A stretch of DNA of 4,260 nt. Origin: a virus (Duplodnaviria > Heunggongvirae > Uroviricota > Caudoviricetes). A program made the position numbers and the translations under genes. Positions within the stretch are counted from its first letter, which is position 1. Each line of letters starts with the position of its first letter. The stretch is taken from positions 1-4,260 of the IMG/VR virus record IMGVR_UViG_2778261504_000021. The stretch is one strand, 5' to 3'. The notes beneath the pieces were generated by a model, which was not told the origin of the DNA, did not search any database, and saw only the letters and a program-made list of their open reading frames with translations. Positions 602 through 1,048 of this stretch are shown here, in pieces.

Positions 602-1048
602 TTAAGGTTTTAATTCATCAAGACGTTGTTGGATAGTGTTTTTGCTTGCGTTGTCTGTTATAGACATTTGTTGTACTTGCCCCATTGCCATTTGAGTTTC
701 CATCCACATATCGGCCCACACTTTTGTATCGTTATTAACTTGAGCGATAGTAAATCTGACTTTTGATACCGGGGTTGTTGAATAGGCATTGCCGATTAAC
801 ATTTGTCCAAAAACAGCAGAGCCGCCTTCCAGTTCTTTACCACATATAACACTGCTGTTATCCGCGTTGTAAATTATCAACCCTCTACTATTGCAGTAAT
901 TCACAAGGGCATCTTTGACTTTATCTTTTGTCGTATTTTGATAAACCCCCTCAGGTTTTCCTGATTGAGTTTTCTTTATCAATGGTACGGAAGAAGTACA
1001 ACCTGAAATGATAGTTGCGCTAAGTAATAGTACAGTCATTTTATTCAT
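602..1048 (-). CDS. Predicted lipoprotein of unknown function (148 aa), cargo/moron-like gene on the strand opposite to late transcription
   Basis: N-terminus MNKMTVLLLSATIISGCTSS has a positively charged n-region, a hydrophobic core and a lipobox (ISG|C) with Cys at residue 17. The gene looks visibly AT-richer than the flanking Q and lysis genes. It occupies the slot where lambdoid prophages carry lysogenic-conversion genes. Confidence 0.65.
   Translation of the reverse strand: MNKMTVLLLSATIISGCTSSVPLIKKTQSGKPEGVYQNTTKDKVKDALVNYCNSRGLIIYNADNSSVICGKELEGGSAVFGQMLIGNAYSTTPVSKVRFTIAQVNNDTKVWADMWMETQMAMGQVQQMSITDNASKNTIQQRLDELKP

Follow-up and report, generated by a model that had tools for sequence, protein, structure and literature searches.

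Positions 602-1048 of the window encode, on the minus strand, a 148-residue predicted lipoprotein of PHROG 3152, whose gene, judging from sequence comparisons, is the cargo of a horizontally mobile moron cassette that separates the antiterminator gene Q from the late promoter pR'. We tentatively interpret the product, with a probability of roughly 45%, as a superinfection-exclusion lipoprotein directed against lambda-like siphophages. The window, by which we mean the whole 4,260-base stretch of DNA that was analysed, comes from a lambdoid E. coli prophage, of which it covers late regulation and lysis, and comprises the following features:

Window start, before Q: 3' end only of a DUF968-type gene.
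156..521, plus strand: antiterminator Q of the PF06530 type (Pfam PF06530, E=2e-51; phrog_79; relatives annotated 'antiterminator Q family protein').
516..1112, no strand assigned: predicted moron cassette of ~600 bp, from the end of Q homology to the -35 of the pR'-like module.
564..593, plus strand: terminator-like hairpin GGGGAG..CTCCCC (564-583) with a T-rich tail, just after Q (consensus scan and direct reading).
602..1048, minus strand: lipoprotein gene, 148 aa, PHROG 3152 (ORF list, phrog_3152, homologues, dN/dS, AF2 model).
998..1048, minus strand: predicted signal peptide and lipobox, codons 1-17 (PS51257-type pattern; Cys17 codon at 998-1000).
1083..1110, minus strand: candidate sigma-70 promoter TTGATT-16-AATAAT, matching the consensus at 9/12 positions only, back to back with the pR' -35.
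1114..1141, plus strand: pR'-like late promoter TTTACA-16-TATGCT (consensus scan; homology to Lahn1, 4A7 and mEp332).
1178..1197, plus strand: first terminator-like hairpin after pR', GCCGCTGAGCGGT followed by a T7 run, conserved with Lahn1, 4A7 and PPyecE_EH1910.
1230-1260: second terminator-like hairpin (consensus scan).
1321-1518: 65-aa winged-helix-like ORF (phrog_331).
1653-2366: AraC/YdeO-like regulator (phrog_1450).
2395-2704: four tRNA genes (anticodon CAT, Lys-TTT, Thr-TGT, Gly-TCC).
2997-3212: holin, phage-21 type.
3217-3531: DUF1327/YdfR gene.
3587-4120: lysozyme.
From 4117: 5' part of an Rz-type gene.

For Q we adopted the ATG at 156 used by RefSeq relatives; the mechanical ORF begins at TTG 141.

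The lipoprotein reading frame, whose product begins MNKMTVLLLSATIISGC, was recovered at exactly the coordinates and on the strand given by the original prediction, with support from the ORF list, homologues and dN/dS. Its N-terminus, MNKMTVLLLSATIISG followed by C17, conforms to a PROSITE PS51257-type rule (K/R within residues 1-7; uncharged h-region; [LIVMFWSTAG]2-[LIVMFYSTAGCQ]-[AGS]-C; Cys at 15-35), with K3 in the n-region, an h-region devoid of charge, the lipobox I-S-G-C (IISG immediately before C17) and Thr at +2. The clean lipobox read from the sequence was thus borne out, in that Cys17 is invariant in a 21-sequence alignment of close homologues, 19 of which pass the strict lipoprotein rule. 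More broadly, a lipobox was found in 117 of the 148 best family representatives, and Asp at +2 in none of them. Also nearly invariant in the 21-sequence alignment are C52 and C69, which likely form a periplasmic disulfide, and two motifs, GNAYSTTP and KVWADMWxETQMAMGQ, are strongly conserved. The gene is under strong purifying selection, with a median dN/dS of 0.06 among homologue pairs (0.1<dS<1.5); among the E. coli alleles we counted 10 synonymous versus 9 non-synonymous variants, one frameshifted copy being excluded. As had been proposed, the gene is AT-richer than its neighbours, if modestly: its GC content is 37.8% (GC3 32.9%), against 44.1% for Q, 50.5% for the 65-aa ORF, 43.8% for the AraC-like gene and 45.4% for the window.

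This region is not confined to a single prophage. Three complete E. coli genomes, including an O157:H7 strain, contain a 781-base query spanning 540-1320 at 100% identity, and at least 80% of this query was present in 185 of 5,426 complete E. coli genomes (~3%) from cattle, poultry and human sources. The isolated temperate phages PhiR40_1 and PhiR55_1 also carry the lipoprotein gene in the same arrangement as the window.

Comparison with related phages defined the slot in which the gene resides. The gene lies directly downstream of Q, as originally described, and is convergent with it, the two stops falling at 602 and 521. In 4A7, mEp332 and Lahn1, homology to the window extends through Q to ~515-520 and resumes exactly at 1113; the intervening DNA in 4A7 and mEp332 consists of a reverse-strand nmpC/ompC-like porin gene, while in E. 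coli SY033 and phage PPyecE_EH1910 the slot is empty and homology resumes at 1141. The pR' module begins at 1113 whether it is preceded by Q itself, by the porin gene or by the lipoprotein gene. The block at 1113-1201, comprising a promoter-like element, a small hairpin and then a terminator, is common to hundreds of Stx and other lambdoid phages, and in the Stx1 phage Lahn1 it starts about at the Q stop codon, ahead of the site annotated as the tR' late terminator. The pR' of Stx phages is located directly downstream of Q, is constitutively active and is terminated shortly afterwards (PMC8065619, PMC7547250). Given its homology to the Lahn1 site and this known position, we identify 1114-1141, by homology and position, as the late promoter pR'. 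The lipoprotein cassette thus occupies the porin slot, with Q on one side and pR' on the other, and its gene diverges from pR'; contrary to the original prediction, this gene does not run antisense to late transcription, as the pR' module (1113-1201) lies to its right. The view that the gene is moron cargo in a known lysogenic-conversion slot fared better, as it is mobile, accessory and missing from otherwise colinear relatives, with 4A7 and mEp332 carrying a porin gene at the same place.

Further observations concern the mosaic structure of this region. In relatives that lack the lipoprotein gene, only window bases 1-256, covering the first third of Q, are held in common, with similarity returning from 1141. 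Positions 257-1140 therefore behave as one mosaic unit consisting of the last two thirds of Q, the cassette and the -35/-10 elements of pR'. This pattern hints that the specificity domain of Q moves as a pair with its cognate promoter, carrying along the moron that separates the two. In Stx phages, the pR' position is the source of a constitutive short transcript that is processed to the StxS small RNA (PMC7547250). Window positions 1113-1260 occupy the place of the StxS transcript, in a module common to Stx phages and 4A7/mEp332; an Rfam scan detected only the tRNAs, with no family matching the short pR' transcript or module.

The corrected layout also constrains how the lipoprotein gene may be expressed. 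The original prediction had placed a divergent promoter region at 1049-1320, most of which is in fact occupied by pR' and its terminators; as the pR' module starts at 1113, only ~64 bp (1049-1112) are left for a promoter of the gene's own. Within this interval a consensus scan returned TTGATT-16-AATAAT as the sole candidate. A promoter-like site is also present at the Citrobacter tail-slot copy, and scans for promoters and terminators at two other tail-slot copies gave nothing convincing. At the other end of the gene, the hairpin at 564-583 lacks a U-tract on the minus strand, and since its T-tract is found on the plus strand only, it resembles a terminator of the Q transcript and not of the lipoprotein mRNA. 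Because the gene is not part of the late operon and is oriented away from pR', a weak promoter of its own would be expected to act in the lysogen, and transcription may resemble that of the porin genes occupying the same slot in related phages. The revised map of Q, cassette and pR' also affects the design of promoter fusions, as the fragment proposed earlier includes the constitutive late promoter.

The 65-aa ORF at 1321-1518, with weak winged-helix matches (TrmB, MarR), is the first gene 3' of the pR' module wherever it is present among the loci examined, and is conserved in phages with or without the lipoprotein gene. For the regulator at 1653-2366 the best NCBIfam matches are YdeO (4e-31) and GadX (1e-24), both under the family cut-offs; the same AraC-family protein, WP_000301785.1, occurs in O157:H7 strain NE 1092-2 and in strain SY033. 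This protein may be one of the AraC-like regulators by which EHEC prophages influence acid resistance and type III secretion (PatE/Psr-like). Among the tRNAs, the gene with anticodon CAT was called Met by ARAGORN, and RefSeq calls the first tRNA of a close relative's set tRNA-Ile. In related prophages this site holds Ile and two Arg tRNAs instead, and the tRNA set can for that reason be viewed as a swappable module. Within the lysis cassette, the DUF1327/YdfR-family gene (3217-3531) constitutes an extra gene between holin and lysozyme.

With respect to its relatives, the protein matches PHROG 3152, a family listed as 'unknown function', over its full length (E=3.2e-104; residues 1-148 on profile positions 1-148 of 148). 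A word-indexed search retrieved 31 relatives only, all from Enterobacterales, and an exhaustive profile search yielded 823 cluster representatives at E<=1e-3 (408 at E<=1e-10), of which the top-scoring, among the matches listed, are mostly 135-175 aa in length, like the target. Source databases name the members 'hypothetical protein' or 'lipoprotein'; one UniRef entry, a Xenorhabdus homologue, is labelled 'VirB7', for which none of the scans run gave support. A Pfam scan of the 148-aa protein gave no family at E<=0.1 beyond two chance-level matches, and searches of Pfam, NCBIfam, PADLOC and PDB sequences found no match with either the single protein or the profile as query. Among the PADLOC defence HMMs the only hit was a partial one to PbeC (E=0.014, 11.9 bits), and the protein belongs to none of the PADLOC families. 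The original prediction had not recognised the protein as Bor or Cor, and rightly so: neither Lambda_Bor nor Lipoprotein_Ltp was matched in the Pfam scan, and BLASTP against HK022 Cor gave E=29, i.e. no similarity. In the papers found, neither the RefSeq protein accessions nor the PHROG number is mentioned, and the sole paper found to name the carriers PhiR40.1 and PhiR55.1 deals with a different defence system. The family is already catalogued, as PHROG 3152, without a described function, and can be placed among the envelope lipoprotein morons of prophages.

Surveying the genomic contexts of the family revealed a marked association with tail genes outside the E. coli-type copies. A scan of IMG/VR identified 75 loci, comprising 50 E. 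coli-type copies (>=97% identity), all in the arrangement of the window and unlinked from tail genes, and 25 diverged copies (40-70% identity), 23 of which lie inside the lambda-like tail-tip block H-M-L-K-I-J on the tail-gene strand. With X denoting the family gene, the latter are distributed over five different insertion points: K-X-I (9 copies), TMP-X-M (7, plus 1 on a cut contig), TMP-X-J, with a J-like gene (3), M-X-L (2), and X-TMP, upstream of the tape-measure gene (1). The remaining two diverged copies correspond to one in a nin-type early region and one on an uninformative contig. Among species-representative genomes, tail-tip placement was observed in 7 of 13, including Morganella, Proteus, Photorhabdus, Xenorhabdus and Haemophilus. 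The K-X-I order occurs in Jejubacter, Morganella and a genome labelled Salmonella; in Citrobacter, two species of Haemophilus, an Enterobacteriaceae MAG, Photorhabdus and Xenorhabdus the gene follows, or is close downstream of, a tape-measure gene with a lambda-type C-terminal domain; and in Proteus it stands among tail-tip genes. Other placements are the early region (Phytobacter), beside a Mu-type DUF3164 gene (Halomonas), beside icd (Symbiopectobacterium), and two chromosomal sites, truA-dedA-X-fic in one MAG and an X-PDZ fusion near hutU in Sphingosinicella.

Several properties of these copies are consistent with a mobile unit. In every phage context examined, the GC content of the gene is 7-16 points below that of its flanks. 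A terminator, ACCCGCTCCGGCGGGTTTTTTT, directly 3' of the stop codon, is kept in the Jejubacter and Morganella (K-I) and Citrobacter (H-M) copies, which also have in common ~20 nt of the 5' leader; because terminator and leader are kept across different slots, the gene bears the signature of a self-contained moron with a history of repeated insertion. The tail-slot copy often lies right after gpK (JAB + NlpC/P60) or before a DUF6950/NlpC_P60-like gene, and all carriers examined encode a tape measure of the Tape_meas_lam_C type. In the K-I slot, where the K-X-I members of the family lie, HK022 has annotated morons of its own; one of these HK022 morons, gp20 (3749-3973 of the locus), encodes a predicted membrane protein of 74 aa that has no relation to the lipoprotein. 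The junction of K and I appears to be a general insertion hotspot.

A structure search had been suggested with the original prediction. An AlphaFold2 model built from the alignment (mean pLDDT 85, pTM 0.75) predicts a helix/strand sandwich, which most resembles a generic alpha+beta fold of the BamC-N/KA1/DUF3568 kind. Identities to the BamC N-terminal domain, Flpp3 (DUF3568), DUF4468 and eukaryotic KA1 are 6-10%, with all Foldseek E-values >1e-3, and since the resemblance is generic no function can be transferred from these folds. A few members of the family possess C-terminal PDZ, BamD/YfiO-like TPR or SHOCT domains. These fused members are distant (P0092, P0101, P0128 and P0173; 7740-8699 of locus L028), and at least one, the Sphingosinicella protein encoded near hutU, is chromosomal. 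The fusions point to descent of the phage-borne domain from a cellular envelope protein. Distant chromosomal members with PDZ or TPR fusions also imply a cellular role for the domain, one that may have nothing to do with phages, and so speak against the exclusion reading.

The sequence features permit the following model. Judging from the lipobox and the rules that apply in E. coli, the precursor would be exported by Sec, lipidated at Cys17 and cleaved by signal peptidase II, leaving a mature protein of ~131 residues predicted to form a compact alpha+beta domain. In E. coli, lipoproteins with a residue other than Asp at +2 are targeted to the outer membrane, and with Thr at this position the protein is predicted to be sorted there by the Lol pathway. 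Once in the envelope, and judging from genomic context, it may act against the entry of lambda-like siphophages, resulting in superinfection exclusion. The block could concern the receptor or, with somewhat higher probability, a subsequent step in the periplasm in which the tail tip or tape measure takes part. Among the carriers, the J C-termini are 25-50% identical, and unrelated in PhiR40_1 and Haemophilus, while the lipoproteins are 43-72% identical. Because the J C-termini are diverse and the lipoprotein conserved, a conserved target, such as a periplasmic step or a tail-tip or tape-measure component, seems somewhat likelier than the masking of one receptor. A single receptor shared by all carriers is disfavoured by the diverse or unrelated J C-termini, which argue against it without being decisive.

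The reading as entry interference draws on precedents, as exclusion genes occupy such places in other phages, with HK97 gp15 beside the tape-measure gene and Cor in the tail region. HK97 gp15, the first moron described, adjoins the tape-measure gene, is expressed from the prophage and brings about a tail-dependent block of DNA entry, and Cor of HK022, phi80 and N15 is a tail-region moron that inactivates FhuA and blocks other siphophages (PMC3594210). Neither is a relative of the protein studied here: gp15, which belongs to the YebO family, is a small protein of the inner membrane, carries no lipid anchor signal of the lipoprotein type and is not homologous; HK022 Cor, also a small lipobox protein (it starts MKRLIICIAGALMLSGC), is 77 aa long, against 148 aa, and is encoded downstream of J. 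Streptococcus phage TP-J34 encodes another exclusion lipoprotein, Ltp (PMC3952083). T5 Llp is likewise a phage-encoded lipoprotein, and blocks infection at the receptor. Ltp differs from the PHROG 3152 lipoprotein in fold and size, as Llp probably also does. The target of Ltp is reportedly the tape measure. Overall, searches of Pfam, NCBIfam, PADLOC and PDB disclosed no homology to any characterised exclusion protein, and a position in the tail region is by itself weak evidence for exclusion, because non-exclusion morons such as lom are also located there. Further points against exclusion are the lack of linkage to tail genes in E. coli, a promoter candidate agreeing with the consensus at just 9 of 12 positions, and a minus-strand hairpin devoid of a U-tract.

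Morons that share the slot or the compartment, but not the gene family, offer a second line of comparison. The nmpC/lc-type porin morons (DLP12- and PA-2-like; 4A7, mEp332) occupy the same Q-pR' slot on the reverse strand and, as predicted for the lipoprotein gene, specify an outer-membrane product; they differ in encoding a 16-strand porin in place of a 148-aa lipoprotein, with no sequence relation, and in the size of the cassette (~1.7 kb versus ~0.6 kb). Porins of the Q-pR' slot also change which receptors are displayed: the Lc porin of PA-2 is expressed in lysogens and reduces OmpC, the receptor of this phage. Lambda Bor/Iss, like the predicted product here, is a prophage outer-membrane lipoprotein, with Bor transcribed against the late genes, but bor is situated downstream of Rz and the PHROG 3152 gene between Q and pR'.

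We weighed the exclusion reading against other explanations of the same data. A conversion factor that serves the host independently of phages, i.e. an outer-membrane lipoprotein that alters serum resistance, adhesion, envelope stress tolerance or permeability in the manner of Bor or Lom, is rather unlikely, yet would fit a moron in a slot otherwise holding a porin, its presence in 185 of 5,426 complete E. coli genomes of cattle, poultry and human origin, and the chromosomal envelope proteins with PDZ or TPR partners found among its distant relatives. The protein shows no similarity to Bor (no Pfam match at E<=0.1), however, and such a role leaves unexplained why 23 of 25 diverged copies, in Enterobacterales and Pasteurellaceae, fall within the tail-tip block. 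That placement could instead reflect protection of the progeny or of the producing cell during the lytic cycle, either through receptor masking on debris, which would save released virions from being lost, as in the second role of T5 Llp, or through periplasmic neutralisation of a tail-tip NlpC/P60 peptidase (gpK-like). In its favour, the gene of most phages outside E. coli runs with the late tail genes, inside their block, and often stands beside gpK or a DUF6950/NlpC_P60-like gene. We nevertheless regard this as improbable: the E. coli copy is outside the late operon and runs in the opposite direction, the tail-slot copies have their own terminator, which suggests independent expression, and no homology to known peptidase immunity proteins was found.

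Much less probable again is a part in lysis, in the manner of an o-spanin, or in virion assembly, as a factor for building tails, even though the gene is frequently placed among tail assembly genes and has weak PHROG matches to Rz-like spanins (E 0.02-0.035). Upon inspection these matches prove limited to the signal peptide and lipobox (residues 1-33 or 1-45), and an o-spanin (Rz1-like) assignment was rejected. O-spanins are short, proline-rich lipoproteins whose genes lie inside or beside the i-spanin gene of the lysis cassette; the gene studied here is 3 kb from the Rz-type gene and absent from viable, closely related phages, the window already has a lysis cassette with an Rz-type gene from 4117, and an exported lipoprotein cannot join a tail that is built in the cytoplasm. 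Finally, a spurious or decaying ORF without function, for which the frameshift in one IMG/VR copy might speak, has a negligible chance of being correct in view of the 823 family representatives, the median dN/dS of 0.06, the invariant lipobox Cys, the conserved motifs and the confidently predicted fold. The interpretation we favour, albeit tentatively, is therefore still superinfection exclusion.

A bolder extension of the exclusion reading, which we consider doubtful, is that PHROG 3152 as a whole represents a widespread, hitherto unrecognised class of Gram-negative exclusion lipoproteins, in which a BamC-like domain anchored in the periplasm would bind a conserved portion of the lambda-type tail tip or tape measure of an incoming phage and so block DNA injection. 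If true, the family would do in Gram-negative bacteria what Ltp does in Gram-positive ones, which would account for its repeated insertion into the H-M-L-K-I-J block.

The family merits experimental attention, as it is under strong selection, is carried by ~3% of complete E. coli genomes, including O157:H7, and recurs in tail-tip operons from Enterobacterales to Haemophilus; of our results, only this link to tail-tip genes in two bacterial orders was not obvious. Envelope-remodelling morons of prophages decide which phages infect a strain and can alter virulence traits. Few exclusion lipoproteins are listed for Gram-negative bacteria (Cor, Llp); if the PHROG 3152 lipoprotein does block entry, their number would grow by one protein family, and a conserved vulnerability in the delivery of siphophage DNA might come into view.
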